From: Candidatus Kryptoniota bacterium
GTDB taxonomy: Bacteria; Bacteroidota; Ignavibacteria; Kryptoniales; JAKASW01
Length of the DNA: 64,000 bases
Assembly: GCA_046705025.1 (NCBI GenBank)
Contig: JBJKQU010000043.1
Coordinates: 104,961 to 168,960 of the forward strand
Reading direction: 5' to 3'
Notes under the pieces: model-generated
Database searches by the model: none
The model's input: only the letters and a program-made list of their open reading frames with translations
Told to the model about the DNA's origin: nothing
Program-made: the position numbers and the translations under genes
Shown here: positions 17,977 through 48,981 of the stretch, in pieces
How the letters are laid out: each line of letters opens with the position of its first letter
How positions within the stretch are numbered: position 1 is the first letter of the stretch

Positions 17977-18001
17977 GCTTTTAGCAGCGTTTCGTTAAAT
18001 T
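17973..18001 (+). promoter_or_regulatory. Sigma70-type promoter of tRNA-His (TTGAGC-17-TAAATT)
   Basis: 17-nt spacing, about 20 nt upstream of the tRNA. Confidence 0.5.
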
Positions 18002-18022
18002 AATACGCAAGTTTGTAGTTAT

Positions 18023-18097
18023 GCTGGCGTAGCTCAGTTTGGTTAGAGCGCCTGACTGTGGATCAGGAGGTCATGGGTTCGAATCCCCTCGCCAGTA
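18023..18097 (+). tRNA. tRNA-His (GUG), CCA not encoded
   Basis: Acceptor GCTGGCG/CGCCAGT, D arm GCTC/GAGC, anticodon arm CCTGA-CTGTGGA-TCAGG, T loop TTCGAAT, discriminator A. Confidence 0.96.
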
Positions 18098-18525
18098 CGT
18101 ACTTCGCAGGTTTTTGAAAAGTTGTGACAGGCTTGTGACGGACTGTTTTTATGACCGATACCACATCATCGCACACCTCCCTTTCCTGGATTTACCGTAC
18201 TTTCCATCTCCGACCGGCTGCTTTTTCGACGATCCTCTCTTACCTCGCCTAAAATCATGGTGGTCTCCCTTCGTGTTATGAGACGTCAACTTTCTCCCGG
18301 CCTTTTCCGGCAGTACACCGGGATACGAATGTGAGACCACCTTTTCTGATTTACCGGGACAGGACTTGTCCTGATAGACCGGATCGGGAAAAACACAAAA
18401 CTGGTGAACAGAATAGACCGGGAGTTTATATGCAAGTTGCATTTGATTTGGTTTCATTATTAAACTGCAATAGTTCATTCTCGTTTGTCATTACATATAA
18501 TTAGAGATAAAAAACGGGCACTTAC

Positions 18526-19995
18526 ATGCTACTGAATAATATTAATATGAAAATAACGATAGTTATCTCTGTGTTTATATTGTTCTTATTGCATCCGGAG
18601 GTAATACCTGCCAAACAAAAGATCAAAAATGAAGGCAATACTATAGAACTCATTTCTTCTGATAATCCTTTAGATACGGCATTTTCATGGGCAAAGAAGA
18701 TCGCCCTGGGGTATGCAAGAGCTGGAGATCCAGTTGGCAGATGGTATGATGCCGCCTTGCCCGGAAGAGAATCTTTTTGTATGAGAGATGTATCGCATCA
18801 GGCGGTTGGAGCATATTTCTTGGGACTCGAAAGTTATACCAAGAACATGCTTGCTAAGTTTGCTCAGAATATCTCCGCTTCAAAAAAATGGTGTTCATAT
18901 TGGGAAATCAACAAGTACAATAAGCCGACTCCGGTCGATTATGTTTCCGATAATCATTTTTGGTATGATCTCCCCGCAAACTTTGATGTTATGCAGGCAT
19001 GTTATGAAATGTATAAATTGACGGGGGACTCTTCATTACTGCTAAGTGCTCCTTTCTATCCCTTTCACTATCACACGATTCATGATTATACGAAAACCTG
19101 GGATTCTAACCATGACGGTGTCATGAATGCTTCGGACGAATCCTCGATGGGGATAGCTTCTTACGTAGAAAGCGTAGGTGGTATTTTCACGGGGGCTGAT
19201 TTGCTTTTGGCACAGTCGAAGGGTTACAAGATCTTCTCGCACATTATGAAAATTAAGAACAAGTTGGACAGTGCAAAAATGTATATGAGTATGTCGAATA
19301 GATTAAAAGAAATGTTTGATCACAAATGGTGGGATACGAAGGATAAAAGATTCTATGATTATATAGATTTTAGCGGAAAATATGAAAACCTGAATTATAT
19401 TCCCGGAGCTTTAATTTTGGCTCTGCATTTCGGGTTGGTGACGGGAAAACATGAAAGAGAACATGTTATTTCTGTTTTGGATAAATGCATTAAGATGAAA
19501 AACAGAGTAGAAGAACATTCTTACTTAGCAATGTTTTTGTATCGGTATGATAAACCGGAAGAAGCCTATCGCAGTTTACTGTTTTCAGTCGACCCCTCTG
19601 TCAAAAGAAGGACGTATCCGGAGGTATCATACGCATTTATAGGAAGTGTCGTAGAAGGATTAATGGGAGTAAATCTGAATGCTCCAGGAAATATTGTAAC
19701 GACAATTCCAAGGCTTCCTGAAAACATGAAATATATAGAGCTGAAAAATATTCCGTGGAAAACCGGTTATATTACGGTTGAGCATAATGAATTGAAGTCG
19801 ACCACACTTATTTCCAATGCAAAGAGATCGTTTGTGTGGAGGGCAGTGTTCCCCGGTACAGGTACAAAACTATTCGTGAACCATAAGGAGGTGAAAGCAA
19901 AGGAACAATTGGATTTGTATGGTAAACCAGAGACTTATGTCGACGTAATAGTTAAGCCAGGAGTAAGTTGTATTGTGTCGAAATCAAGTCTGTGA
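18526..19995 (+). CDS. Secreted putative six-hairpin (alpha/alpha)6 glycoside hydrolase
   Basis: Signal peptide, FCMRDVSHQ motif, WW-D-x-x-x-F pattern, YPEVS, C-terminal beta-rich tail; adjacent to a GH27 gene. Fold is inference. Confidence 0.55.
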   Translation: MLLNNINMKITIVISVFILFLLHPEVIPAKQKIKNEGNTIELISSDNPLDTAFSWAKKIALGYARAGDPVGRWYDAALPGRESFCMRDVSHQAVGAYFLGLESYTKNMLAKFAQNISASKKWCSYWEINKYNKPTPVDYVSDNHFWYDLPANFDVMQACYEMYKLTGDSSLLLSAPFYPFHYHTIHDYTKTWDSNHDGVMNASDESSMGIASYVESVGGIFTGADLLLAQSKGYKIFSHIMKIKNKLDSAKMYMSMSNRLKEMFDHKWWDTKDKRFYDYIDFSGKYENLNYIPGALILALHFGLVTGKHEREHVISVLDKCIKMKNRVEEHSYLAMFLYRYDKPEEAYRSLLFSVDPSVKRRTYPEVSYAFIGSVVEGLMGVNLNAPGNIVTTIPRLPENMKYIELKNIPWKTGYITVEHNELKSTTLISNAKRSFVWRAVFPGTGTKLFVNHKEVKAKEQLDLYGKPETYVDVIVKPGVSCIVSKSSL

Positions 19996-20053
19996 TACCG
20001 GAAAATATTTTGAGCAATTAACCTTATCATCTAACCATTAAACCGGAATATCT

Positions 20054-34343: not shown

Positions 34344-35152
34344 AAGAGCCGAATCAATCACCGTTCCCAGGATCGTCTGAATACATCAACAAGCTTTTCA
34401 AGGGCACGGGCCACGATATCGCCATCGTCCTCGGCAGCGGGCTCGGCGGATTCGCTAACCATCTGTCGGATATAGTCACCCTGAGAACCTCAGACATCCC
34501 GGGCTATCCCCGCTCTACGGTCGCAGGGCACAGCGGGGAGATCATGAGCGCGAAGCTGGGCGGCAAAAGGATAGTGGTCTTCAGCGGCAGAGTGCATTAC
34601 TATGAATCTGCTTCCTCGACGAACGGTGCTGTCACGGCGATTATCTCGCATGAACTGGGAATACCCAGAATCGTCCTTACCAACGCTGCGGGGATCCTGA
34701 ACGAGTCGTTCAATCCGGGCGACCTGATGCTCATAAAAGACCAGATCAATTTCACTTTTAGAAATGTGCTTATCGGCCTGAGACCGCATCCCGTAAGTCT
34801 GCAGCCTGTCTATAGCGAGCACCTGGCCGACAAAGCCTACGCTGCGTCTGAGAAGTCGGGGGTTAACTTGAAGTCCGGTGTCTACATCGGACTGACGGGG
34901 CCTTCCTACGAAACACCCGCAGAGGTCAGGGTCTACAGGAACCTTGGGGGTGACGCGGTCGGGATGTCGACGGTTCAGGAGGCCATTTTCGCGAAGTCCG
35001 CAGGGATGGAGGTTGCAGGCATCAGCTGCCTCACCAACTACAGCACGGGAATCACATCACAGAAGCTTTCCCACGAAGAGGTAACTCAGATCGGGGCAAG
35101 GGTAGACAAAAAGTTCTCACGATTGTTGACGGCGTTTGTCGAACTACTGTAG
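34340..35152 (+). CDS. punA: Purine-nucleoside phosphorylase (trimeric type)
   Basis: VLGSGLG, GRVHYYE, GPSYETPAE, VGMST. Confidence 0.94.
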   Translation: MKEPNQSPFPGSSEYINKLFKGTGHDIAIVLGSGLGGFANHLSDIVTLRTSDIPGYPRSTVAGHSGEIMSAKLGGKRIVVFSGRVHYYESASSTNGAVTAIISHELGIPRIVLTNAAGILNESFNPGDLMLIKDQINFTFRNVLIGLRPHPVSLQPVYSEHLADKAYAASEKSGVNLKSGVYIGLTGPSYETPAEVRVYRNLGGDAVGMSTVQEAIFAKSAGMEVAGISCLTNYSTGITSQKLSHEEVTQIGARVDKKFSRLLTAFVELL

Positions 35153-35404
35153 GCTTATCACCCATATCGTGGAGACTCCGGATCCCCGGCTGAATTTCCG
35201 ACTGACCGGTACCCCATCTGCCGGCCTGTTCGCCCCAATGAAAGAATCGACCGGTGTTTCGTCTATACGTATTCTAATAATCTCGAGCTCAAAACCGCCT
35301 GACATAGTCCTAAAGCTGCAGAAAAAATAAGAGAAGAGTGAGTCCCCTATGACGGCATTGCCGACAGAAACAGGCCTTCACTCTCCTGGTGCGACAAACG
35401 CGAC

Positions 35405-35896
35405 TCACTTCTTCGCGTCCACAGAGCGAAGGTACTCAAGCACAGCCCGAGCATCCTGCTTCGTTATTCCCGGTACAATCATTGGAATGTGATATTCATT
35501 AAGGAGCGCCTTTGCGGCAGGATCCTTCGCCTCCATCACTGTGCTGTTTAAAATGAAGTTCATTATCCACTCGGGGCTCCGGCGATTCGTAACGCCTTTC
35601 AGCGCCGGGCCGACAAGTCGTGAGTCCAGCTGGTGACAGGACATACATCTCGCGTCAAAAACACTTTCGCCCTTTCCGGCAAGCTTCTTGTTAATGGGAC
35701 CAAGCTTAAGTTCTTTAATTGGACCGATTCCGAGGTCCTCGTTCTTGCTTTTTGTCGCCTTCTTCGCCTTCGTCGAATCCTGAACCTTAGTCTGATCCTG
35801 TTTCGTTCCAGAAGTCGTAACGGCCTGCTTGGCGGTAGGGGTATAGAAAGCAGCACCGATAAAAAGGACAAAGACGAGCGATGCTAATTGTTTCAT
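35405..35896 (-). CDS. Periplasmic monoheme cytochrome c (Rhodothermus marinus cytochrome c-like)
   Basis: Signal peptide, IGPIK, CMSCH, VGPALKGVTNRR, EY..PM, ARAVLEYLR; start at ATG 35896 after a GGAG RBS. Confidence 0.9.
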   Translation of the reverse strand: MKQLASLVFVLFIGAAFYTPTAKQAVTTSGTKQDQTKVQDSTKAKKATKSKNEDLGIGPIKELKLGPINKKLAGKGESVFDARCMSCHQLDSRLVGPALKGVTNRRSPEWIMNFILNSTVMEAKDPAAKALLNEYHIPMIVPGITKQDARAVLEYLRSVDAKK

Positions 35897-36151
35897 TTGT
35901 TTCTTTCTCCAGATTGATAGTAAATAATGCCGCCGCGTCTGAACCCGCCTCATGCCGGAAAGTTCCGCTCAATGCGCGGCGGTGAAATTCCTCGGCCATG
36001 ACTATGACTTCAAGTGTCTCATGGGCTCCTCCAGCTACAGACTCAGCGATGTTCCAAAGCGGTTCTGCAATTTAAGCAACGAACTCATGCCGTACATCCG
36101 ATGCCGCCTCGCGGTTCATCCTGGATGAGGCGGCGCACCCAATGACGCAAT

Positions 36152-36177
36152 GCCGGGACCCTTTCGCGGGCCCCGGC
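36152..36177 (-). terminator. GC-rich hairpin downstream of cyc2 (terminator or mRNA-stabilising stem)
   Basis: Minus strand GCCGGGGCCC-GCGAAA-GGGTCCCGGC; no U-tract. A second stem GCCGCCTC/GAGGCGGC lies at 36103-36134. Confidence 0.45.
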
Positions 36178-36231
36178 TTGCACAACATGAGTCCTGAATT
36201 TGATGTTAACTTTTACTCGCTTCAACCGATC

Positions 36232-37578
36232 TTACAGTAGGAACCACCAAGTAACGTAAAGCGTGTTATTGTCGGCGGCAGTTCTTCCGAAACCGTCATA
36301 ATTCGTGCTGCTTCCATTGAAGCTGCTATACATCACATATTGCAATGCTAATCTTGTGTTCTGCCACGGGTTGTAAGCCAATTCAGCTGTCAGACCACTG
36401 CTGTTCGGGCTTCCGGACAGGCTGCCGTCGACCGGATCGGGGGCGTAAAGTATGTTGTCGCTCGAGCCCGATGTATTGAAATACTGAAGCATGACGGCAA
36501 GTCCGCGGCAAAATGAAAATGCCCCGTCGACCCGGAATGTATTCAGCGCATTATTAAGGTTTTGGGAGGCACCTGCCGCATAGCTCGCATTGAGCTGCTG
36601 GTTTTCGTGAATCCAGGTGGAATGGAGAACCAACTCGTCGCTGCCAATCGCCTGCTCTAACTGGAAGTCCAGAGCAATATCGGTATAGTTGTCAGTAAGT
36701 CCGCTGATCCCGCCGGGAAAAATGTCCGCTGAAAGGCCGTACGTCCCTATTTCGGCGTAAGTGGTTGACCACTGCTTTTGGAGAGCCACTCTCCAGTATG
36801 GAGCAATTCCGTTTATCGTGAACTGAGAGCCGGAACCCGCAGGAAAAGGCCCACCCTGAGGAGTCGACTTGTAGCCCGAGAGGTCGGCATAGACAAGGTT
36901 ATCATACATCCCGTACGCTCCAAGTCCAGCAACGTTCCCGCCAAGTGCTCCGTCGACCAATGCTGCCGCGCCAGGAGTCGGTGCCGTGCCTGAAGAGGAG
37001 TACGGAAAACCCCAGGCCGGCGTGCTGTTCCAAAGATCTTCGACCGTCGGATTATTGTTCAGGTCAATCCCATAGTCGATCTCATGATTGGAGATGAAAC
37101 CCTGGTTCGAATAACGTATGTCTGTGTTGTCCCATCCGAATGCGGCTCCCTGATCATCGTAGGTAATCTGGGTGAATGCTCCGATATGGGGCGTAATCTG
37201 GCCGCCCAGAAACAGACTAAGCTGCTGGGGAAACTCGAAACTGCCGGTCTTCGTACCCGGCTCCGGCTTCGCGACGTTGTTATACGAGGTCTGAACCATT
37301 GCCGACATAAGGAAATTCTTCAAAAGGCTTAGGGCACCCTGATCGCCTTTGGCCGAATCGCTTATGGTTTGCCTCGTCGTCAACGTGTAGCCGTTGAGTT
37401 TGAATTTTCTCCCGAACGGGGTGAGCTCCGGGTAAGTATAGTGGCATGAACTACAAGGTAAGTTGGTTTGGCGTGCATAACTCGGTATCGCATAAGCATC
37501 AACCGGCAGCACCGATGAAACAGCAAATAATGCTCCGAACAAAAGCAGAGCACCTTTCTTTCCGTAATTTGAGAACAT
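36232..37578 (-). CDS. cyc2: Cyc2-family outer-membrane cytochrome c-porin fusion (candidate Fe(II) oxidase)
   Basis: Signal peptide, then AIPSYARQTNLPCSSCH..PELTPFGRKFKLNGY, followed by a beta-barrel region (FPQQLSLF.GQITPHIG, NNNPTVEDLWN, APYWR, SGSP, PWQNTR). Start at ATG 37578 with AGGA RBS. Confidence 0.9.
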   Translation of the reverse strand: MFSNYGKKGALLLFGALFAVSSVLPVDAYAIPSYARQTNLPCSSCHYTYPELTPFGRKFKLNGYTLTTRQTISDSAKGDQGALSLLKNFLMSAMVQTSYNNVAKPEPGTKTGSFEFPQQLSLFLGGQITPHIGAFTQITYDDQGAAFGWDNTDIRYSNQGFISNHEIDYGIDLNNNPTVEDLWNSTPAWGFPYSSSGTAPTPGAAALVDGALGGNVAGLGAYGMYDNLVYADLSGYKSTPQGGPFPAGSGSQFTINGIAPYWRVALQKQWSTTYAEIGTYGLSADIFPGGISGLTDNYTDIALDFQLEQAIGSDELVLHSTWIHENQQLNASYAAGASQNLNNALNTFRVDGAFSFCRGLAVMLQYFNTSGSSDNILYAPDPVDGSLSGSPNSSGLTAELAYNPWQNTRLALQYVMYSSFNGSSTNYDGFGRTAADNNTLYVTWWFLL

Positions 37579-38832
37579 TGTTATGGTCCTTCGTTTTGTT
37601 ATAGCACTATGTAATCGTTCTTCCGCTCGGCGTTTCTCTGATCGAATCATCGAAATGACCGAAACACACTCTCTCTTCACACATATGGTGAATGACAGCG
37701 AGTCTTGACAAATTCAGATGGCGGAACACACAGAGCGGGCAATCATCTTCCTGTCCACGCCATGAGTCTTCTCTTCCCTGACTCCTGAACATATCAAAAC
37801 CGACAACATAAAGCGCATGGTGCCTCAGTCAATCTGATTCTGCTCAACGGTTCCGAGCGGGAAACCGAAAGATGGCGGCAGAATGTCAACTATTATGAGA
37901 ATGAGGTCAATAAGCATGCCGCATAAACAGGCTGAAATCACGCAAAAAAAGGTAGCCAATCTGCACGTTGCAGTCAAGAGACGGGACTCTGCGGGGCATT
38001 CTCCCCCACCGTAACGTCGAATCTCACGACCATTTTCAAGCGAGTCCTCGGCCTGTTTACCAACTCTGGTTACGTTTCTGATTAACGCACCGGGTAGAGG
38101 GAACGTTTCTCAGCGCGACAAACAGTGCGCTTTTCGCCGATCTCGGGCACATTTGGTCCGAGTGAATCTGGTTTCTGCTTCTCTGTTGAGTCGGAAACCT
38201 CACGGATTAAACGGAGTGAAATCCCCAGCCAACCCTTTTGAAAGCTAAATCTACACATTCTCTTGGCGTTTCAGGTCCAAATGGAACATTTTGACACAAA
38301 AACCTGTTGTTTAATTCTGTACGATTGATTATATATCGTCGAGGATTGACAGCCGAGAAAATACAGAGCAGATTCACAAAATGATATTGTTAGTTACCTT
38401 CTCCGATTTGTTGCCGGGGGGGGTTTTTCATGTTAGTAACAGCAAATCGACACCGATCCGATGTGCCGCAAACTTTCTCCGAAGGCAATGTTGACATACG
38501 ACATTTTCCCGGCATCGTGCCGCCTAACGCCGCTCGGGGAACACCATTGAGCGGATATCGTTTTAGGATTGAATGTGAACCGCTTATAGACGTGCTGGCA
38601 TTCGCACACCGGTTCCCGACAAGTGAAACGACGAGACGTTACGGATGTTAGTCTGTACGGCTCCGCTCGCTTGCGAGAGATATCGTCCGGGTGAAGAACG
38701 CGCGGTACTCCACCCCGTTCACGCCGTAAGATATGCCACAAGACGGCCGCTTAGTCCTGGTCTTCGAATCAGTTTTGAAACTTCAAGGGCTAGCGGCATA
38801 CAACAAAGAAAACAAATCTCAAAGGAAGGGCT

Positions 38833-39369
38833 ATGGCAAACAGAGAAGATCCCCAACTACCAGAAAAGATTGATCCATCACGCCGAAGCTTTCTTAAAAT
38901 CAGCACGAACGTCATCGCAGGGTTTGCAACTCTCATCCTTGCGATTCCCTTTTTAGACGCCCTCATCAGCCCATCACTCAGAGTCAAAGTCGGAAGATTC
39001 GTCAAAGCAGGTCCTGTTTCAGTGCTTCCGGACGATAACCCGCATAAGGTCTTTTTCGACGAGCGCGAGAAAGACGCCTACATTGAACAGACAGAAAGGC
39101 GGGATGTTTGGGCGATCAAACATACTTCATCGGAAGTCACAATTTTCTCGCCGATTTGTCCTCACCTCGGTTGCCGCTACAATTGGCTCCCAACCGAAGA
39201 AATCTTCGCATGCCCATGTCACGGAAGTGAATGGACAAAAGAGGGAAAGATTTTACGCGGTCCGACCCCGCGCCCTCTCGACACCCTTCCTCACAAGATC
39301 GAGGAAGGTGACCTTTATGTGAAATGGGAACGATTCAAACTCGGCGTTCCTAAGAAGATCGTAATATAG
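38833..39369 (+). CDS. Rieske iron-sulfur subunit of a Rieske/cytochrome b complex
   Basis: Tat motif SRRSFLK plus TM; CPHLGC and CPCHGS boxes; GPTPRPL. Confidence 0.96.
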   Translation: MANREDPQLPEKIDPSRRSFLKISTNVIAGFATLILAIPFLDALISPSLRVKVGRFVKAGPVSVLPDDNPHKVFFDEREKDAYIEQTERRDVWAIKHTSSEVTIFSPICPHLGCRYNWLPTEEIFACPCHGSEWTKEGKILRGPTPRPLDTLPHKIEEGDLYVKWERFKLGVPKKIVI

Positions 39370-39380
39370 GAGGAACGCAA

Positions 39381-41420
39381 ATGTTATCGAAACTAAGTGA
39401 TTGGATCGAAAAGAGGTGGCCGCTTCAGACTTTTTGGAAGACTGCTACTGAAGAAGACATCCCGGGCGGTTCCAGCTATGCCTACACGATGGGAAGTGCG
39501 ACTCTTTTTCTATTTCTTCTGCAAATAGTAACAGGCATATGGCAGCTGTTTTACTACGTGCCAACGACAGATCATGCCTACCAGAGCCTCTCTTATCTTC
39601 GGCTCGAAGTCCCGTTTGGATGGCTGATTCACGGCCTACATTTCTGGGGCGCTACAGCCATGGTAATACTGCTCGCAGCACACCTTGCCAGAGTATACAT
39701 ATGGGGTGCTTACAAGAAGCCGCGTGAGCTTACCTGGCTGCTGGGCGTATTCCTTTTTCTGTTTACAATGGCTATGAGCTTCACCGGTGCCGCCCTTCCG
39801 TGGGACGAGACAGGCTACTGGGCGTCTGAGGTGGGCACCAGCATAGCCGGTACTACTCCAGTGATCGGCAGCCTTGCGGAAAACATTCTCCGCGGTGGAG
39901 CTCAAATGACACAGCTCACGCTGTCGCGTTTCTTTATCCTCCACGTAGCCATACTCCCTGCTATCCTTCTCGGTTTCATCGCTCTCCATCTTGTCGCCTT
40001 CCGGCGCAACGGGAGCGTCGGCCCGTGGAAAGAGGAAAGACGTAAACGAGTCGGTCAGTTTTGGCCGGACCAGGTATTCAAGGATGCATTCGTGTTCACT
40101 TTGATTCTTCTGGTGCTGATCGGCCTCGCTGCCTTCTTAGCCCCGCCCTTCTCCGGAGCCGCAGACGCAATCGATACCACTTTCCACCCGAAGCCTGAGT
40201 GGAATTTCCTCTTCTTGTACCAGGCCATCAAAGCCTTCCAGGGACCATGGGAGCCTGTCGGTACTATAGGAATTCCCACCGTCGCTTTCATCGTACTCTT
40301 CACTTTGCCTTTCTTCGATAGAAACCGCGAACGCAATCCGCTCAAAAGGCCCGTTGCCATGATAATGGGATTTATCGTTGCCGCAGGAGTTATCACGCTG
40401 TCGATCACAGGTTACTACAGCCACCCGGGTTCACAGAAAACCGGTACCGCGGCAAAAACGGCCTCAGCCGTGATGCTCAAGACAGCAGACAAGGTGGATC
40501 CTGCTCCTTCTCCGGCTTCACAAGCTGCCCCGCTTACCGCGGCACAGAAAGCGGGTGCCAGGCAAGGCGCCCAGCTGTTCTCGAAGATGGGGTGCGCGGC
40601 CTGTCACACAGTAAACGGTGTCGGAGGGCACGTAGGACCCAACCTGTCAGGTGAAGGTTTGGCAGGACATTCGACAGCATGGCTTGCCCAGCAAATCATG
40701 GATCCTAAGTCACATGATCCGAAGACGGTAATGCCCCCGTTTACCATGTTGAATGACCCACAGGTGGATCATCTCGTTGACTACTTAATAAGCCTTCGCA
40801 ACAAGGTTGCTCCCACCGCCGAGAAGCCTACTTCGGTAGCCTCCGCTCAATCGATGTCGACCACCCCACCTCCAAATCAAAGTGTCATTCAGCTTCCGAG
40901 CGAGGTGGGCGAGCCCGGGAGGGCGGTAAATATGGTCGGAAATGTAGAACACGGGAAGAAATTGTTTGATGCCAATTGCGCCAGCTGCCACGGCCAAGCC
41001 GGCAAGGGCGGAGTGCCTAACCCCGGTTCTTACCTCGGGACAGTCCCCGCGCTGAATCCCGTACGGAAGGAACTCTTCAGCAAGGTTCCGGCTGTCTTTG
41101 CCGAAAATCTCGACCGGTTCATAGAGAATGGAGCTGTCCCGCCCGGACCTAGTCCCCAGAAGCACATGGCTGCTATGAGCATGATAGGATACGGAAAAAC
41201 CCAGTCTCTGACTCAACAGGAGATCTCAAATGTGATTGCCTACATTATGCACCTCAATGGAGTCAGCCGGGCCGAGATTCAGCATCCTGGAATACCCCCA
41301 AAGACATTCTTCTTTATATCGCTCGGAATTTTCGTGGTTCTGTGGATAATTCTCGGAATGATGCGACTGGTCTCAACGCAAGGAAAGACCAGAACGTCGG
41401 ATGACCGTAACTCAGTTTAA
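39381..41420 (+). CDS. Cytochrome b fused to two cytochrome c domains and a C-terminal TM anchor
   Basis: Heme b His motifs (GLHFWG, AHLARV, ILHV, LHLV), LPWD, PEWN; CAACH and CASCH domains separated by P/A/T-rich linkers. Confidence 0.94.
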   Translation: MLSKLSDWIEKRWPLQTFWKTATEEDIPGGSSYAYTMGSATLFLFLLQIVTGIWQLFYYVPTTDHAYQSLSYLRLEVPFGWLIHGLHFWGATAMVILLAAHLARVYIWGAYKKPRELTWLLGVFLFLFTMAMSFTGAALPWDETGYWASEVGTSIAGTTPVIGSLAENILRGGAQMTQLTLSRFFILHVAILPAILLGFIALHLVAFRRNGSVGPWKEERRKRVGQFWPDQVFKDAFVFTLILLVLIGLAAFLAPPFSGAADAIDTTFHPKPEWNFLFLYQAIKAFQGPWEPVGTIGIPTVAFIVLFTLPFFDRNRERNPLKRPVAMIMGFIVAAGVITLSITGYYSHPGSQKTGTAAKTASAVMLKTADKVDPAPSPASQAAPLTAAQKAGARQGAQLFSKMGCAACHTVNGVGGHVGPNLSGEGLAGHSTAWLAQQIMDPKSHDPKTVMPPFTMLNDPQVDHLVDYLISLRNKVAPTAEKPTSVASAQSMSTTPPPNQSVIQLPSEVGEPGRAVNMVGNVEHGKKLFDANCASCHGQAGKGGVPNPGSYLGTVPALNPVRKELFSKVPAVFAENLDRFIENGAVPPGPSPQKHMAAMSMIGYGKTQSLTQQEISNVIAYIMHLNGVSRAEIQHPGIPPKTFFFISLGIFVVLWIILGMMRLVSTQGKTRTSDDRNSV

Positions 41421-41705: not shown

Positions 41706-43091
41706 CTATTGTGAGTAGGTCACGGTCCCGTTCTTCTTCTCAGCGAGGTAAACGTTCATGATATACTCGGCGACAGCGTGAACTTGTGCCCGGTTCAATC
41801 CCTGTTTGGGCATCGGCGGATATCCTTTCAAAATAGGTGTCGGATTCATAATGAAGGCCTCAAGGTCGTTCATCTTCCCGACATAGTCCGGAAGGACCAT
41901 ATTGTAAGGAGGGCCCACAAGTTTTGTGTTGAACTTATGACATGCGCCGCACGTGTGCGTGTAGATCTCTTTCCCGCTGATCTTCTCCGTCGATACCGTC
42001 GGGAGATTCGCCAACATTTTATTATAGTTGCTGGTTAGGAGTTGATAGTGTGACGAATTAGACTCGCTGAACGAGACTCCGTTACGCGCCATCCATGCAC
42101 CCACCATGACAACGACTCCGACGAAAGCGTATGTACCGAAATTCAGCCTGGTCCGTTTCAGCATCGAGTAGAAGAAGTGAAGGAGGACGAAGACAACCAC
42201 GAGGGCCAGAGCTCCCAACCCGAAGACTACTCCCGCAAGCGCACCGGAGGGAATCTCTGCAAGGTCCAGGAAAATCAGCAGCGGCTGTGCCAAAACAAAG
42301 ATGAGGGCTGTCATAACTGAGAACCGCTTGACAAATGCCTCGTAGTGATCGTCTTCGATCCCTATGCCTCCATCCCAGATAAAGAAGAAGAAGATCGTGG
42401 CCGCAGACTCGATCACCGCTGCCGCTGTTATGAAATGAAGAAGACTGAGTATTGCCGGTCCCGAAAAGAGAATCACCAGATAGTCGGAGCTGCCGTATGC
42501 CCCGGGTCCTCCGATCGCTAGAGCAGTGCCCGCCAGAAAAACCCACGACCCCAGCCAGAGAAGCACGGTTCCGAATATTCCGGCTCGGCGCCGGGTCTGG
42601 TGTGCGGAGACTTCCATCGCGTGAAGATCTACCGAGCTTGCGGAATCGATTTCTTCCCTCTGTGATTCGCTGAGCATCGTATATGACTTGATAAATCCTT
42701 CGAGCCGGAAGCTGTACTTGTACGCAAGCAAAAACATGAACCCAAGGACAAAGAGTACCGTGCTGGCTGCCATATAATTCGTAACGGTCGCGTTTGTATT
42801 GTAAAGCAGCTGCGCGTAGATAAGGAGAACCGTTATGATCGGCAGTATCCCTAAAGCCGTGAATGCGCCTTTTCCCGGGATCGCCATGTCGATGAGATTC
42901 CTCGAGAACCTGTGGTAAATCGGATTGTTGTGCTTTCTGCCTGCACCGTTGAAATATAGCGACAAAGTTGCTCCGACGACGCAGATGCTGACATACATAA
43001 TCATCATTGTCGAGACGAAAGCAAGCAAGTAGTACAGAAGAGTAAGGCGCTCGCCGGATTCCGGAATTACAAGATTGTTGAGGAAATGCAT
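41706..43091 (-). CDS. Polytopic membrane protein with C-terminal monoheme cytochrome c
   Basis: About nine TM segments, then CGACH..LVGP..PPMP class I cytochrome c domain; last gene of the oxidase operon. Confidence 0.85.
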   Translation of the reverse strand: MHFLNNLVIPESGERLTLLYYLLAFVSTMMIMYVSICVVGATLSLYFNGAGRKHNNPIYHRFSRNLIDMAIPGKGAFTALGILPIITVLLIYAQLLYNTNATVTNYMAASTVLFVLGFMFLLAYKYSFRLEGFIKSYTMLSESQREEIDSASSVDLHAMEVSAHQTRRRAGIFGTVLLWLGSWVFLAGTALAIGGPGAYGSSDYLVILFSGPAILSLLHFITAAAVIESAATIFFFFIWDGGIGIEDDHYEAFVKRFSVMTALIFVLAQPLLIFLDLAEIPSGALAGVVFGLGALALVVVFVLLHFFYSMLKRTRLNFGTYAFVGVVVMVGAWMARNGVSFSESNSSHYQLLTSNYNKMLANLPTVSTEKISGKEIYTHTCGACHKFNTKLVGPPYNMVLPDYVGKMNDLEAFIMNPTPILKGYPPMPKQGLNRAQVHAVAEYIMNVYLAEKKNGTVTYSQ

Positions 43092-43095
43092 CGTG

Positions 43096-44109
43096 CTAGA
43101 ACCTCCATGGTGAGATCAGGTTGAGAAGCGCAGCGACCAGTATGACAACGGTAACTGCCAGAACATAAACGTTAATCTTCATGAACGCGGCTTTATACAC
43201 CTTTTTGTTGCCGTGATCCCTGACAATACCCACAGTGCTCAGGGCCAACCAAATGCCCAATCCCACGACGATTCCTGCAGCACCTGTCCCCCGGACGACA
43301 CCTGTAGTCAAGAAGAGTCCGGATAGCAATACGAGGGAGACTGTCCACGCATAAGTCGTAACAGCAAATGTCCTTTCCGACATGATTCTCTTCAGCGTAG
43401 GGAATCCCGCCCGTTCATAATCAGCTGTGTAAATGTCCATAAGCAGCCAGAAATGCGGGATTTGCCAGACGAAGAAATATAGAGAGAGGGCTATAAGCCT
43501 TGGATCCAGAATACTCCCTCCGGCGGCAGCCCAGCCGGCCATTATCGGCAGAGAACCTACAAACGATCCCGGAATAACCGCAAACGCAGTTTTCTTTTTC
43601 AAAGGAGTGTATATGCCGTTGTACCAGACAAGCGCGAGAAGTGCGAGGACAAGCGCCGGTGCATTTCCCCACACGTAGGTGACGGCGGAACCCACGACAG
43701 TCAGTGCTATTAACACTGTCAGCGCCGCGCGCGAGCTCACGATTCCCGAAGGAAGAGGACGCCGCATTGTACGGTGCATCAACCCATCCGTGAGCCGTTC
43801 CTGATAGTGGTTCAAGACTGCAGAGCCACACGCAACGAGGAAGATTCCAAGGGTAGCCATCAGCATCCTGAAGGAAATGTCGTTTGCAGCCAGGACGTAT
43901 CCGAACAAAGCGGACATGCCCACGAAGAAAGTGATCTTAATCTTGACGAGTTCCAGGAAAGCCCTCGACAGATCCTTAATGCGTTCCACATGTCCTGTGA
44001 CGGGAAGCTCCAGCGCGGCAGATCCCTCCCCGGCAATTCTTCTCAGAGGAACGCCGGGCCCGCCGACGGTTCCCGTGATCTTTCCAGTGCGATCGGAGTT
44101 AGTATTCAT
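43096..44109 (-). CDS. ctaB: Protoheme IX farnesyltransferase (heme O synthase)
   Basis: N..ER..D.LM.RT..RPLPSG, YTPLKK, WQIPHFW, DYERAG. Confidence 0.95.
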   Translation of the reverse strand: MNTNSDRTGKITGTVGGPGVPLRRIAGEGSAALELPVTGHVERIKDLSRAFLELVKIKITFFVGMSALFGYVLAANDISFRMLMATLGIFLVACGSAVLNHYQERLTDGLMHRTMRRPLPSGIVSSRAALTVLIALTVVGSAVTYVWGNAPALVLALLALVWYNGIYTPLKKKTAFAVIPGSFVGSLPIMAGWAAAGGSILDPRLIALSLYFFVWQIPHFWLLMDIYTADYERAGFPTLKRIMSERTFAVTTYAWTVSLVLLSGLFLTTGVVRGTGAAGIVVGLGIWLALSTVGIVRDHGNKKVYKAAFMKINVYVLAVTVVILVAALLNLISPWRF

Positions 44110-44127: not shown

Positions 44128-44784
44128 TCAGAAATACGTCGTCTTGTACTTATCGGCAACTTCGGGCATCGATGTGCTGCTAGAGCCAAGCCAGGAGTCG
44201 AATACACTGTCCGGAAGGACAACCATCTTCGTCCTCATGTTGGCATGGCCGAACCCGCAATACTTGGCGCAGAGTATATCGTAATCACCCAGCTTCTCCG
44301 GATAAAGCATCATGTGACGCACCCTGTCCGGGAGCGCATCCTGCTTCTCTCTGAAAGCGGGCAAATAAAAGCTGTGGATGACGTCAAGTGATTCTATTAA
44401 ACACTCCAACGGTCTTCCCTGTGGGACGTAGAGGGTGTCGGTGCGTTTGCCGTTCTGATACTCGAAGGACCACTTCCATTGTTGGGCAAAGACTCTGACG
44501 GGCAGAGAATTCTTCGGGATGACGTTCATTTGTGCGTATGCCACCCACCCGTAGTAGAACATCACGAGCACGAGCAGCGTCGGAACAACGGTCCAGATTA
44601 CCTCGAGCGCGACGTTGTTCGGGATACTCGTCGCGACGGGATGCCTCTTGTGATTGTACTTGAAGACGAAGAGCAGCATGAAGAATATGACGATCAAGAA
44701 CAGAACAATTGACGCGATCACCATGAATCTCATGTCGTCGTCCACGGCCTGAGCGTGATTCAATGCGTATGGCAGCAATCTCAT
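44128..44784 (-). CDS. coxB: Cytochrome c oxidase subunit II (CuA), no fused cytochrome c
   Basis: Two TM segments, LEVIWT, QQWKW, DVIHSF, CAKYCGFGHANM. Confidence 0.95.
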   Translation of the reverse strand: MRLLPYALNHAQAVDDDMRFMVIASIVLFLIVIFFMLLFVFKYNHKRHPVATSIPNNVALEVIWTVVPTLLVLVMFYYGWVAYAQMNVIPKNSLPVRVFAQQWKWSFEYQNGKRTDTLYVPQGRPLECLIESLDVIHSFYLPAFREKQDALPDRVRHMMLYPEKLGDYDILCAKYCGFGHANMRTKMVVLPDSVFDSWLGSSSTSMPEVADKYKTTYF

Positions 44785-45104: not shown

Positions 45105-45749
45105 TCAGTTAACCAGGTAGAATAGCGGGAACAGGAATATCCAGATAATGTCGATCAGGTGCCAGTACAGGCCTGCCGCTTCAAGCCTTACCGAATCTTG
45201 CTGGTTAATCTTTCCCTTTAGAATGAATATGAGCATGGTTGTCAGGAGGCCGCATCCCACCAGCACGTGGAGGCCGTGCAGGCCTGTCATCAGGTAGTAC
45301 ATGGCGAAGAAGAGCTCGAATCCCCTCGGATGCTGAAAGAGTTTGGCAGAGCCGGGATAAATGCCGTCGGCTATCTCCGTCGACCATTCCGCATACTTGA
45401 TAACCAGGAAGCCAAGTCCTAAAGCTATCGTAGAGGAGAGGAAAGTAACGGAGAGCCACTTCTTCCCTCTTTCAATAGCGGTGATAGAAAGAGCCATGGT
45501 AAGACTGCTCGTCAGCAGCACCATCGTGTTTACGGTGCCGTACATCGTGTGGGTTTCCATCGCGGCTTGGTGGAACTCCTTCGTATAGAAATATCGATAC
45601 GCGGAATATAGCAGGAACATTCCGCTGAAGAGAAGCAGCTCGGTCATGAGGAACAGCCACATCCCCATTTTTATTCCCTTTACATCCTTGGCGGGATGCT
45701 CTTCGTGCCGGAGCGGCTCAGCCCTTTCGGGCAACGACAATTCACTCAC
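45105..45749 (-). CDS. coxC: Cytochrome c oxidase subunit III (short form)
   Basis: GMWLFLMTE, NTMVLLTSS, TGLHGLHV, LYWHLIDIIW. Confidence 0.96.
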   Translation of the reverse strand: MSELSLPERAEPLRHEEHPAKDVKGIKMGMWLFLMTELLLFSGMFLLYSAYRYFYTKEFHQAAMETHTMYGTVNTMVLLTSSLTMALSITAIERGKKWLSVTFLSSTIALGLGFLVIKYAEWSTEIADGIYPGSAKLFQHPRGFELFFAMYYLMTGLHGLHVLVGCGLLTTMLIFILKGKINQQDSVRLEAAGLYWHLIDIIWIFLFPLFYLVN

Positions 45750-47397
45750 TTCGTTAACGCCTCCTCGTGGTAATACGGCTCATGGGTGATAACAGGTTCT
45801 ACTTCGAAATTTTCATGTGCGGGCGGCGACGGGATGGTCCATTCAAGCGTGGTACCACCCCATGGATTCTTTCCGATGCGCGGCCCTTTCATCATCCCGT
45901 GAATGAGATTGACGAACATCACGATAAGCGCCGGCACCAGAATCCAGGACCCGATGATGCTGATTCGCTGAAGTGTTTCAAAGTGCAATGGGTAGGTGTA
46001 GTATCTCCGCGGCATCCCTTCGTATCCCATGATGAACATCGGGAAATAAAGCAGATTGAATCCGATAAACATTACAAGGAGTGCCCAGCTGGCCAGCTTC
46101 TTGCTGTACATTCGGCCCGACATTTTGGGAAGCCAGTAGTGGAGCGCGCCGAAAAAGATGAACATACCACCGCCGAAAATGATGTAGTGAAAATGAGCGA
46201 CTACAAAATATGTAGACGTGAGGTGGACGTCGGTAGCCAGCGAACCCAGGACGAGACCGCTCAGTCCTCCGATGGAGAAAAGCGCCATAAAGGCCATAAC
46301 GAAGAGAAAGGGAGGCTGCGGATCAATCGACCCCTTGTACATGGAGGCGACCCAGTTGAATACTTTTATGCCGCTCGGAATTGCGACCATAAACGTCAGG
46401 AAAGAAAAGATCATATCCGCCTGCTGAGACATCCCGGCTACAAACATGTGGTGTCCCCATACAAGGTAACCTATGAAGGCAATAGCCAGGCTGGACATCG
46501 CTATCATTTTGTATCCGAATATCGTTCGGTGACTGAAGGTTGCGATAATTTCCGAAACTATTCCCATCGGCGGCAGTATCATTATGTAGACCGCAGGGTG
46601 CGAATATATCCAAAAGAGGTGCTGGTACATGACAGGATCACCTCCGGCGGCCGCATTGAAAATTCCGACTCCGAATATGCGGGATATCATAATGAGCATA
46701 AGCGTGATTGCGAGAACCGGCGTAGCGATAATCTGTACCCACGCCGTCGCGTAAAGAGCCCACACAAACAGCGGCATCTTGAACCACGTCATGCCTGGAG
46801 CTCTCAGCCTGTGGATCGTGGTGAGGAAGTTGATGCCGGTGAGAATCGATGAGAAACCGACGATGAAAACTCCCCACACGGCAATCGTTACTCCCGTTGT
46901 CGTATTCAGACTGTAAGGAACGTAGAAGGTCCATCCAGTGTGTCCGGAAGTCCATTGATGAACAGGGAAAGAAGAATCACGATTGCGCCTGTTACGTAGA
47001 GATACCACGAGAAAAGATTCAGTCTCGGAAACGCCACGTCTTTCGCCCCGATCTGCAAAGGCAGGAAGAAATTCCCCAAGGTCACGGGAATTCCGGGGAT
47101 GACAACGAGAAACATCATTATGACCCCGTGAAGCGTGAACATAGCGTTGTAAACCTGAGCACCGACAAGCTTGCCGCCCGGGGTCAGCATCTCAAGACGC
47201 ATCAAGACACCGAGCACTACTCCGACGGAGAAGAAACTGAACAGGACCACCATGTACATGATGCCGATGCGCTTGTGGTCGGTAGAAAGCAGCCATGCCG
47301 CCAGGCCCTTGTGCTTCCCCGTATTTTCCAGATAGCTACCTTTTATGACGGACGACTCCGTCGGCGGAATTGCCTCTGGTAGAGCGATCTCAGCCAT
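45746..47397 (-). pseudogene. coxA: Cytochrome c oxidase subunit I (A2 type), split by a 2-bp frameshift near 46940; real lesion or assembly error
   Basis: 5' ORF has STDHKRIG, FTLHG, DVAFPRLN; 3' ORF has GWTFY, WIYSHPAVY, WGHHM, AHFHY, MPRRY. Removing 2 nt from 1652 nt gives 550 codons. Confidence 0.92.
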
Positions 47398-47400
47398 TTC

Positions 47401-48225
47401 TCAGTTTCCTCCTCTGGCGTGTTTGAGTTTTTTCGTCCTCCACAGGAACACACCGACTCCCAGCAGGAAGATTGTGGTTCCCCAACCGACCACTTCCAGA
47501 GTATCGAGTCCATAACCCTTCTCAGAGGGATCGTAACTGAAACACATCTTCAGTACCGTCCCTATGATTGGAGCAAACTTGTTTTGCTTAGCGTTCAGAA
47601 TCGCCATTTCGACATCGATCGCGTTAAAGGTCGTTCCGTATATGTACCTTGTGATTTTCCCTTCTTTGCTGACAAAGATGAGTGCAGTCGGATGCGTGAA
47701 TGTCTTGCCGTCTTTATTCCTGATGAAGTAGAATCCCAGTTCGTTTGTAAGCTTGTAAATATTCGCGCTGTCACCGGTCAGGAATCTCCATGCATCCGAA
47801 GGGAATGGACGATTCATCATACCGACGAAAGAACCTTTTTTTTGACGCGCGCGGGCCGGTGTATCGGTGGTGTCAAAACTGATGGTCGCCACCCTGTAAT
47901 CTTTGCCTGGAGCGTCGCTGATCTTTTCGAGAACATCCTGAACGCCGCCAAAGACCGCGTCGCAAATGCCCGGACACGTATAATATGCCATGTCTATTAT
48001 GAGAGGTTTCCCGTCGGACAAATCGGCAAGGGTCATCCGTTTTCCATTCGAGTCGATGAAACTCAAGTTCATATCTATTTTTTTGCCGAGGTGCTGGACA
48101 ATGCCGACGGCCGGATGGCTCGCGTCCTCTGCCGATGCAAACGGAGGGGACCCTGTTAACATGAACATGACAGCGGAACTGAAAACTGCAATTACTAACG
48201 GATTAATAACTCTCTTCATCTTCAT
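47401..48225 (-). CDS. SCO-family copper chaperone
   Basis: Signal peptide, YYTCPGIC (CxxxC), WRFLTG, FTHP, C-terminal TM; start uncertain. Confidence 0.92.
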   Translation of the reverse strand: MKMKRVINPLVIAVFSSAVMFMLTGSPPFASAEDASHPAVGIVQHLGKKIDMNLSFIDSNGKRMTLADLSDGKPLIIDMAYYTCPGICDAVFGGVQDVLEKISDAPGKDYRVATISFDTTDTPARARQKKGSFVGMMNRPFPSDAWRFLTGDSANIYKLTNELGFYFIRNKDGKTFTHPTALIFVSKEGKITRYIYGTTFNAIDVEMAILNAKQNKFAPIIGTVLKMCFSYDPSEKGYGLDTLEVVGWGTTIFLLGVGVFLWRTKKLKHARGGN

Positions 48226-48267
48226 TCTCCCAATATACTTCGTACTCAAACCTCCAAAAGGGATTGT

Positions 48268-48981
48268 TCAGTCATTGCCCTGTGCAGTTCCGCCCGCCTT
48301 CGAGGCCATTTTGGCCAGTTTCTCGACGTCGGCTTTTGTCTCTTTGGGAAATCCCTCGAAGGTTCTGATGTAGCTTATTATATCAATCCTGTCGTTGATT
48401 GAAATGGTGCTGAAAGGAGGCATGGGGCTTCCGGGTATTCCGTCGGTTAGAGTCTTGAACATGCCCGACGCCATCCGGCCGTTTATCCAGCCCTTAGCCG
48501 AATGAAAGTCACGCGGCTTCGGCTTCAAAGCTGCTGCTGCAGGTCCGTCGCCTTCGCCATTCGCTCCGTGGCAGGCGACACAGTTGTTCATGTAGAGGTT
48601 CTTCCCCTTCTCTATCATCTCTTCCGACGGCGACATCAGGCCAGCATACCTTTTGAAATCGACAGACGCTTCAGACGCCGATGAAGGTGCGGGGGCTGCA
48701 CCGGACACCGCCGAAGCTTCTGATGACTTCGACGTCGCAGGAGTTGCGGCGGCGGATTCTGAAGCGTTCGAACTCGGTTGAGTTAGTGCTGCCTGACTGG
48801 TAGCGGCCGCTGGGGTGGAGACGGGGCTCTGCTTAGCTTGCCGATGGGCTGAATAAAGGAAACCCACTCCGACGACTACACCGACGAAATACACATAATA
48901 CAGCGCGCGCCACCATGACTTCCTTTCGAAGAATGATGCCTCCGGATCCGGATTACCTCTCTGTAATTGTCCTTCCATCAA
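48268..48981 (-). CDS. Membrane-anchored monoheme cytochrome c with flexible A/S/T/P linker
   Basis: N-terminal TM, low-complexity linker, CVACHG..G.GDGP, PKPRDF, GIPGSPMP; first gene of the oxidase operon. Confidence 0.92.
   Translation of the reverse strand: MMEGQLQRGNPDPEASFFERKSWWRALYYVYFVGVVVGVGFLYSAHRQAKQSPVSTPAAATSQAALTQPSSNASESAAATPATSKSSEASAVSGAAPAPSSASEASVDFKRYAGLMSPSEEMIEKGKNLYMNNCVACHGANGEGDGPAAAALKPKPRDFHSAKGWINGRMASGMFKTLTDGIPGSPMPPFSTISINDRIDIISYIRTFEGFPKETKADVEKLAKMASKAGGTAQGND

Follow-up and report, generated by a model that had tools for sequence, protein, structure and literature searches.

As a marker gene for microbial iron oxidation, Cyc2 is more widely used than any other, and only three proteins of its family have been assayed. 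These are Cyc2 of Acidithiobacillus ferrooxidans, Cyt572 of Leptospirillum and Cyc2PV-1 of Mariprofundus ferrooxydans, all of which oxidize Fe(II) (PMC8406198). In the description given by Keffer et al. (2021; PMC8406198), Cyc2 joins a cytochrome domain to a 16-strand porin for which OprP is a structural neighbor, has at least 365 amino acids (aa), and carries the consensus AXPXFAR[Q/K][T/Y] upstream of its CXXCH heme-binding motif and a PXL motif past it. Here, we describe a cyc2-like gene from a Candidatus Kryptoniota bacterium, in a stretch of 64,000 nucleotides (nt) of contig JBJKQU010000043.1 that we analyzed as a whole and refer to as the window; all positions are window positions. The gene lies at 36232..37578 on the minus strand. 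A sequence-only reading had taken its product for a Cyc2 of the Acidithiobacillus (acidophile) type, acquired horizontally and indicative of an acidic or iron-rich habitat. The protein is an ordinary member of the Cyc2 family, a fused monoheme cytochrome–porin, and the gene is an expected addition to the known family, which bears out the family call of that reading; the parts on acquisition and habitat fared differently.

The open reading frame (ORF) in its GTG-initiated extent covers 36232..37680 on the minus strand. Starting from the ATG at 37578 and ending with the stop codon at 36234-36232, it encodes 448 aa, in agreement with the public gene call, which has the same 448-aa product, and a Shine–Dalgarno-like box (GAAGGA) is located 8 nt 5' of this ATG. 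Residues 1-30 (37489..37578) resemble a signal peptide: the hydrophobic N-terminal stretch LLLFGALFAVSSVL ends in AYA before IPS, a junction that was judged by eye rather than by a signal-peptide predictor and that is kept in orthologues. The protein reads on as IPSYARQTNLPCSSCHYTYPELTPFGRKFKLNGY into a monoheme cytochrome domain (residues ~31-70, 37369..37488) made up of AIPSYARQT, CSSCH (37441-37455), PEL and FGRKFKLNGY. As the sequence-only reading had said, there is a single N-terminal CxxCH, C42-H46, set in the heme context DAYAIPSYARQTNLPCSSCHYTYPELTPFGRKFKLNGY; C357 is the only further cysteine. In the segment CSSCH-YTY-PEL the proline is the fourth residue past CXXCH, as in the PXL motif, and both P50 and L52 belong to the twelve residues that are invariant in 44 aligned relatives (P32, Q37, C42, C45, H46, P50, L52, G56, R57, F59, K60 and Y64). 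The barrel strings FPQQLSLFLGGQITPHIGAFTQITY, GIDLNNNPTVEDLWNSTPAW, APYWRVALQKQW, SGSP and PWQNTRLALQYVMYSSFNG are all present, with two spacings that differ by one residue from those first reported: three residues, not two, separate CH from P, and the first string reads F.G..I, not F.G.I.

The porin domain (residues ~88-448, 36235..37317) forms 16 long strands in an AlphaFold2 model built from the alignment of 44 relatives (mean pLDDT 83.6, pTM 0.81). The model contains a signal helix (2-23), two heme-domain helices (33-38 and 54-61) and 16 strands of 9-17 residues within residues 90-447. A Foldseek search of the PDB with this model retrieved the 16-strand porins OmpT, Omp-Pst2, Omp32 and OmpF (E 1e-9 to 1e-8), with OprP (2o4v) at rank 9, and structure prediction, proposed earlier as a check, thus returned the barrel that the Cyc2 call implied. 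Searches of Pfam and NCBIfam gave no family for the protein, and a PDB sequence search gave nothing at E<=10, nulls that are expected because Cyc2 has no model in those libraries. Together, the signal-like N-terminus, the single CxxCH, AIPSYARQT, PEL, the length of 448 aa and the modelled barrel place the window protein in the Cyc2 family.

The segment AIPSYARQT fits the published consensus at eight of nine positions, with Y replacing F. The published Cyc2 tree demanded the literal string PXFAR[Q/K][T/Y] (PMC8406198), a screen that would drop the window protein. Among 104 family ORFs that we collected, the string is found in 32 and missing from 72, and it is also missing from a Cyc2 that heads a rusticyanin operon (FARQL; genome G406, described below). 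The Y-for-F and S-for-A variants predominate in the sequences from Gemmatimonadota, Acidobacteriota and the Fibrobacterota–Chlorobiota–Bacteroidota (FCB) group, and both the F and the Y forms occur inside the clade of the window protein. In view of the low pass rate and of FARQL in G406, the motif is best taken as a consensus, and we count the window protein as carrying it. Given the literal screen, its clade may be poorly sampled in the published tree.

Relatives of the window protein are numerous. In a 90%-clustered protein database, at least 6965 of 8000 scored candidates match at E<=1e-3; the best match (80% identity) is titled 'cytochrome C [Bacteroidota bacterium]' and others come from Zixibacteria, Calditrichia, Kryptoniota and Ignavibacteriaceae. 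In a 50%-clustered library the matches number 3354 clusters at E<=1e-3, 1363 at 1e-10 and 455 at 1e-30, so the family likeness is far above chance. A pattern scan of species genomes gave at least 601 pattern matches and at least 587 confirmed relatives. The best 80 of these 587 are 42-55% identical to the window protein and comprise 27 Gemmatimonadota, 27 Acidobacteriota, 16 Bacteroidota, 3 Pseudomonadota, 2 Ignavibacteriota and one each from Calditrichota, Kryptoniota, Chlorobiota, Verrucomicrobiota and an unlabelled genome; Acidithiobacillus, Mariprofundus and Leptospirillum are absent from these 80. As a lead only, the nearest clusters in the ESM Atlas are unnamed 'cytochrome c' entries, commonest in Pseudomonadota. 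FeGenie-based surveys already record Cyc2 in Ignavibacteriales, Zixibacteria and Bacteroidota (PMC8478452); a search of the supplement gave community totals only. Among the papers that could be read, none gives per-sequence cluster labels for Cyc2 of the Ignavibacteria or Bacteroidota type; the trees of PMC8406198 and PMC7029218 may already include the clade.

The likeness to acidophile Cyc2 was assessed with the Cyc2 genes at the head of rusticyanin (rus) operons, found by synteny and used as proxies for the A. ferrooxidans protein, which itself stands outside the comparison. The rusticyanin model TIGR03095 (cut-off 146.7 bits) was searched over 400 genomes from the class of one gammaproteobacterial relative; G336 scored above the cut-off, and G406 and G250 gave strong matches. 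In G406, a Cyc2 match is located 7 kb upstream of the rusticyanin gene (136 bits) on the same strand, in the order cyc2, coxB, coxA, a heme A synthase-like gene (ctaA), heme o synthase (ctaB) and rusticyanin. This is the gene order given for Acidihalobacter (PMC10654088), and a protein identical to the G406 Cyc2 carries the public name Acidihalobacter prosperus. Of 19 genomes in the family to which G336 belongs, 16 match the Cyc2 profile and nine have rusticyanin above the cut-off. In genome G456, cyc2 is followed by a gene for a diheme c4-like cytochrome, one ORF, coxB and coxA; after two short ORFs come heme o synthase, rusticyanin (200 bits) and ctaG. This is the order described for Acidiferrobacter (PMC10654088). 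In G336 itself, the rusticyanin has a full score, the contig begins within the operon, and no Cyc2 match was found there with two queries.

The window protein is identical over its full length at 34% of positions to the Cyc2 of G406 (E 1e-82) and at 33% to that of G456 (E 1e-63), and the same motif blocks are aligned in both, EFPVQYSLFYAG..LGVFSQLTYD and EVPQQVSLFYAGEVTPHVGDFLHITY standing opposite FPQQLSLFLGGQITPHIGAFTQITY. Against a profile built around the window protein, the rus-operon proteins score 300-396 bits. In direct comparison the window protein reaches 200-250 bits with them, as against 112-116 and 49-62 bits with two other Cyc2-like types from its own genus. The acidophile-type likeness first noticed in the motifs thus holds toward these two proxies. 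With the Acidiphilium-type plasmid protein as query, a word-index search gave Acetobacteraceae names only, and a search with the G406 protein returned Acidihalobacter followed by Burkholderiales-type matches of 37-45% identity, without Acidithiobacillus. Judged by sequence, the window protein plausibly belongs to published Cluster 2, and its acidophile-type resemblance is real, yet common to a very large branch of the Cyc2 family. The rus operon (cyc2-cyc1-cup-coxBACD-rus) is marked by rusticyanin, a diheme c4 cytochrome (Cyc1) and cox genes that share an operon with cyc2; this combination is absent from the window locus, and the genome to which the window belongs (97.85% complete) has no TIGR03095 match at E<=0.01.

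The inheritance of the gene was examined with two quick maximum-likelihood trees (63 and 56 rows), which carry support from the Shimodaira–Hasegawa-like approximate likelihood ratio test only. Their rows were chosen from 104 profile-matching family ORFs (of 115 candidates) plus the window protein, and the ORFs left out were mostly further Gemmatimonadota and Acidobacteriota. In both trees, the window protein groups with four sequences of its own genus (support 100), one tree sequence of the genus being identical to a record titled 'Bacteroidetes bacterium'. The next clade out (98) contains same-genus, 'Bacteroidetes bacterium', Ignavibacteriaceae and Kryptoniota sequences, and the enclosing clade unites FCB and Gemmatimonadota (98-99 in both trees). 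Its sister (96-97) combines Acidobacteriota with a small number of Gammaproteobacteria. In the unresolved base, amid other proteobacterial lineages, the three rus-operon proteins and a stand-alone G406 copy form a group of their own (87). By the approximately unbiased (AU) test, a tree in which the window's group of four rows forms a clade with the three rus-operon proteins is rejected (p 3.4e-5, with a log-likelihood lower by 73); the window's group was named after inspection of the tree, in which there are long branches.

Within the genus, a full-length orthologue (E<=1e-140, 49-80% identity) is present in 13 of 24 other genomes and absent from 11; the next family in the order, with 12 genomes, yielded none. 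Ten of the 13 loci were examined (those of G002, G011 and G019 were left out). The four closest (72-80% identity) are collinear through the whole block of ABC permease, PNP, cytochrome c, cyc2, Rieske protein, cytochrome b, a 461-aa cytochrome and oxidase genes. The G+C content of 36001-38000 is 0.511, in line with ~0.50-0.53 in the neighboring sequence. Thus, the window cyc2 is inherited by descent within the genus, and acidophiles as its recent donor are not supported. At a greater depth the history is less simple: in a sample of 300 other genomes of the phylum, only two have a gene of this type at E<=1e-60, so the history includes loss or old transfer between phyla, and cyc2 may have crossed between phyla at an earlier time.

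The gene stands within a respiratory neighborhood. Directly 3' of cyc2 lies a gene for a monoheme class I cytochrome c (35405..35953, minus strand; CMSCH; PF00034, 48 bits), whose 182-aa product has a hydrophobic N-terminal segment and a Lys/Thr-rich linker and probably starts at a second Met-Lys (~35896). A homologue occupies this position in all ten same-genus loci examined, and a 'c-type cytochrome' does so in all five annotated plasmid loci of Proteobacteria (two more loci have no annotation). On the other side, and divergently oriented, are genes for a Rieske iron–sulfur subunit (38833..39369, plus strand; PF00355; TIGR01416 at 65 bits, below its cut-off), which is collinear in the four relatives, and for a cytochrome b fused to two cytochrome c domains (39381..41420, plus strand; PF00033, PF13631, PF00032 and two PF00034). 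A cytochrome c oxidase cluster follows on the minus strand. It begins with the 461-aa protein (41706..43091), which has a C-terminal cytochrome c domain (PF00034 at residues 373-446), no Pfam or NCBIfam match in its first 370 residues, and 61-74% identity with the proteins at the same head position in the four collinear relatives. The UbiA-family prenyltransferase encoded next (43096..44109; PF01040, 136 bits) would, from its position, be the heme o synthase CtaB. The cluster continues with oxidase subunit II (CoxB; 44128..44784; TIGR02866, 161 bits, above the equivalog cut-off of 147.7), subunit III (45105..45749; PF00510) and subunit I (45746..47397; TIGR02891 and tblastn). Subunit I is spread over two frames with a shift near 46939: model positions 1-117 fall in ORF 46906-47397 and positions 115-504 in the overlapping ORF 45746-47008. 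The gene is a single frame in the same-genus genome G008. An SCO1/SenC copper chaperone (47401..48249; PF02630) and a 237-aa cytochrome c (48268..48981; PF00034) complete the cluster. In the genome, four PF01578 matches represent cytochrome c maturation genes.

By analogy with the assayed members of the family, we infer both Fe(II) oxidase activity and an outer-membrane location for the window protein. Fe(II) oxidation feeding the neighboring chain is the likeliest function of this putative secreted monoheme cytochrome with its 16-strand outer-membrane porin, and one that we consider fairly probable. Dissolved Fe(II) would be oxidized at the barrel-held heme in the outer membrane, and the electron would then pass to the monoheme cytochrome c encoded directly 3' of cyc2 and onward either to the aa3-type oxidase encoded nearby or to the Rieske/cytochrome b complex next to cyc2. 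The substrate, the site and the electron path proposed here are drawn from the reported biochemistry of three proteins, A. ferrooxidans Cyc2, Cyt572 and Cyc2PV-1 (PMC8406198, PMC7029218). Several points weigh against this function. Keffer et al. describe much of Clusters 2 and 3 as being of unverified function (PMC8406198), and the assayed proteins include no member of the FCB and Gemmatimonadota clade. Relatives of 30-39% identity occur in Ralstonia, Caballeronia, Methylocystis and Ideonella, none of them known as an iron oxidizer, and searches of the genome found neither rusticyanin nor RuBisCO. Some 280-335 nt separate cyc2 from the cytochrome c gene, so that their co-transcription is only putative, and the two-frame state of subunit I reflects either a broken oxidase or an assembly error. 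Since RuBisCO was looked for in the genome and not found, any iron oxidation is more likely to be supplementary (lithoheterotrophic) or protective than to be the basis of autotrophy.

Two other functions can be set against Fe(II) oxidation. The same fold and heme could perform another job, such as electron transfer across the outer membrane in the opposite direction or with other partners (soluble Fe(III) chelates, humics or other dissolved reductants), or could serve to detoxify iron or to sense redox state with no gain of energy. This is unlikely, though it deserves serious consideration: relatives are frequent in organisms not known as iron oxidizers, the Gemmatimonadota and Acidobacteriota dominate the best 80 relatives, RuBisCO is missing from what was found in the genome, Ignavibacteriales and Zixibacteria are reported to carry markers of iron oxidation and iron reduction together (PMC8478452), and Keffer et al. 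allow for extra Cyc2 functions (PMC8406198). What speaks for Fe(II) oxidation instead is the activity of all three assayed proteins (PMC8406198), and electron uptake would agree both with the constant presence of a partner cytochrome c, soluble or tethered, and with the nearby cytochrome c oxidase. The second possibility is a porin for the uptake of solutes or of iron or heme, in which the heme domain would be structural and without a respiratory role. The barrel does resemble general and phosphate-selective porins, but conservation is highest in the heme domain (all 12 invariant residues fall at positions 32-64), a cytochrome c gene always comes next after cyc2 in the same-genus loci and the gene adjoins respiratory complexes, which makes an uptake porin highly improbable.

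A further alternative concerns origin rather than activity, and it is the one put forward by the sequence-only reading: a Cluster 2, Acidithiobacillus-type Cyc2, obtained horizontally and marking an acidic or iron-rich habitat. The motif blocks shared with rus-operon Cyc2 favor it, the rarity of the gene in the phylum means that there has been either some transfer or much loss, and the sister clade holds metagenome-assembled genomes of Acidobacteriota, some of them titled 'palsa' or 'Acidiferrales'. Against these stand the orthologues and collinear loci within the genus, the position in the FCB and Gemmatimonadota clade, the AU test on the post hoc group, a G+C content that does not deviate, the failure to find rusticyanin in the genome and nearest named relatives that carry no acid-habitat label. 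We therefore regard this explanation as very unlikely; a recent transfer runs counter to the evidence, and neither the horizontal acquisition that it assumed nor the habitat that it drew from the likeness is supported. The acidophile-type resemblance is uninformative on habitat or on recent transfer.

The Cyc2 branch of the window protein is common in genomes of Gemmatimonadota, Acidobacteriota and the Bacteroidota type. We tentatively suggest, as a possibility and not as our expectation, that the clade of Bacteroidota/Ignavibacteria/Kryptonia-type, Gemmatimonadota and Acidobacteriota proteins, the majority of which do not pass the literal motif screen, marks a widespread and under-counted facultative, non-autotrophic Fe(II) oxidation in heterotrophs of soil and sediment, wired in this genus through its locus. 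The wiring could consist of a dedicated monoheme cytochrome c, the bc-type complex and the aa3 oxidase, all in one conserved locus. If the proteins of this clade oxidize Fe(II), iron oxidation by ordinary heterotrophs is wider than culture work suggests; conversely, if they do not, surveys based on the marker over-count iron oxidizers. The conserved locus, with cyc2, cytochrome c, bc-type complex and aa3 oxidase side by side, is a tidy candidate for deciding between both outcomes.

Other features of the neighborhood can be noted separately. The divergent region between cyc2 and the Rieske gene (37579..38832) is 1.25 kb long and non-coding; a region of 0.9-1.25 kb is kept in four same-genus loci. 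Aligned with these four loci, it shows invariant runs at positions 712-757 of the first sequence and the block TTTTGAC.CA......TGTTGT..AATT..., and this conserved block (~38283-38350) may act as a regulatory site common to both genes. The region yielded no ORF that could be assigned to a family, and Rfam gave no match at E<=0.1 over 34500-39500. A scan for promoters and terminators returned counts close to the shuffled expectation (4 vs 2.6 and 6 vs 3.9). The layout of the bc-type complex is itself unusual, in that a short Rieske protein is followed by a 679-aa cytochrome b with b6-like N- and C-terminal parts and two cytochrome c domains. The last protein of the oxidase cluster, the 237-aa cytochrome c, weakly matches the NCBIfam model 'cytochrome 579', a periplasmic carrier of Leptospirillum (38.6 bits, cut-off 280), which is probably a likeness of generic class I domains. 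Farther away, the G+C content dips to 0.406 at 18001-20000, compared with ~0.50-0.53 elsewhere in the window.

The genome and its relatives also contain other Cyc2-like proteins. A second gene on another contig of the same genome (C35, 1132-2634 of locus L002, plus strand) encodes 500 aa with the canonical AIPSFARQT..CASCH. This paralogue is 29% identical to the window protein (116 bits), forms a long separate branch in the tree and has a cytochrome c domain just upstream (C35:214-522). A third type, of ~410 aa with PLFARKY..C..CH..PP.LN, was seen in G006, G018, G038 and G028. It matches the window protein over the heme domain only (49-62 bits) and is present in the genus, the order and the class, including genomes without the window type. 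We take its FARKY to be a Cluster 1-like (neutrophile) form of the motif. On plasmids, tblastn found relatives in 15 records, all from Proteobacteria, which cover at least 90% of the query at 30-39% identity: Ralstonia megaplasmids, Caballeronia, Paraburkholderia, Polymorphobacter, Methylocystis, Ideonella, two Acidiphilium and one labelled A. ferrooxidans. The last, CP084173.1 (strain YQ-N3), equals NC_009469.1 of Acidiphilium cryptum JF-5 in identity, E-value, bit score and query span, and its cyc2-like gene adjoins a transposase gene; a label error or a transfer may account for this.

Compared with known systems, the window protein shares only its modelled barrel fold with the porins OprP/OprO, Omp32 and OmpF, which have no heme domain and are 9-14% identical to it in sequence. 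Cyt572 of Leptospirillum (Cluster 3), an Fe(II)-oxidizing fused cytochrome–porin (PMC8406198), is likened to it by description only. The same definition of a signal peptide, a single heme and a 16-strand porin covers Cyc2PV-1 and the Cluster 1 proteins of Gallionellaceae, Zetaproteobacteria and Chlorobium (PMC8406198). The stand-alone pairs of Burkholderiaceae, Acetobacteraceae and other Proteobacteria have the same module of a cyc2-like gene and a cytochrome c gene, with a putative function, but they form separate lineages in the trees, and several are carried on plasmids or megaplasmids, one beside a transposase gene. The rus-operon Cyc2 of the A. ferrooxidans type has the same architecture as the window protein, with an ARQT-type heme context, PxL and the barrel blocks, although the window protein falls outside the rus-operon clade. 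The loci differ in that the cytochrome encoded after cyc2 is monoheme in the window and a diheme c4 in the rus operon of G456, and in that rusticyanin, present in rus operons, was not found by the TIGR03095 search of the window's genome. The rus-operon cox genes are in one operon with cyc2, whereas those of the window lie 4 kb off, beyond the divergent bc-type complex. In both rus operons and the window locus, a c-type cytochrome gene follows cyc2 and an aa3-type oxidase is encoded nearby.

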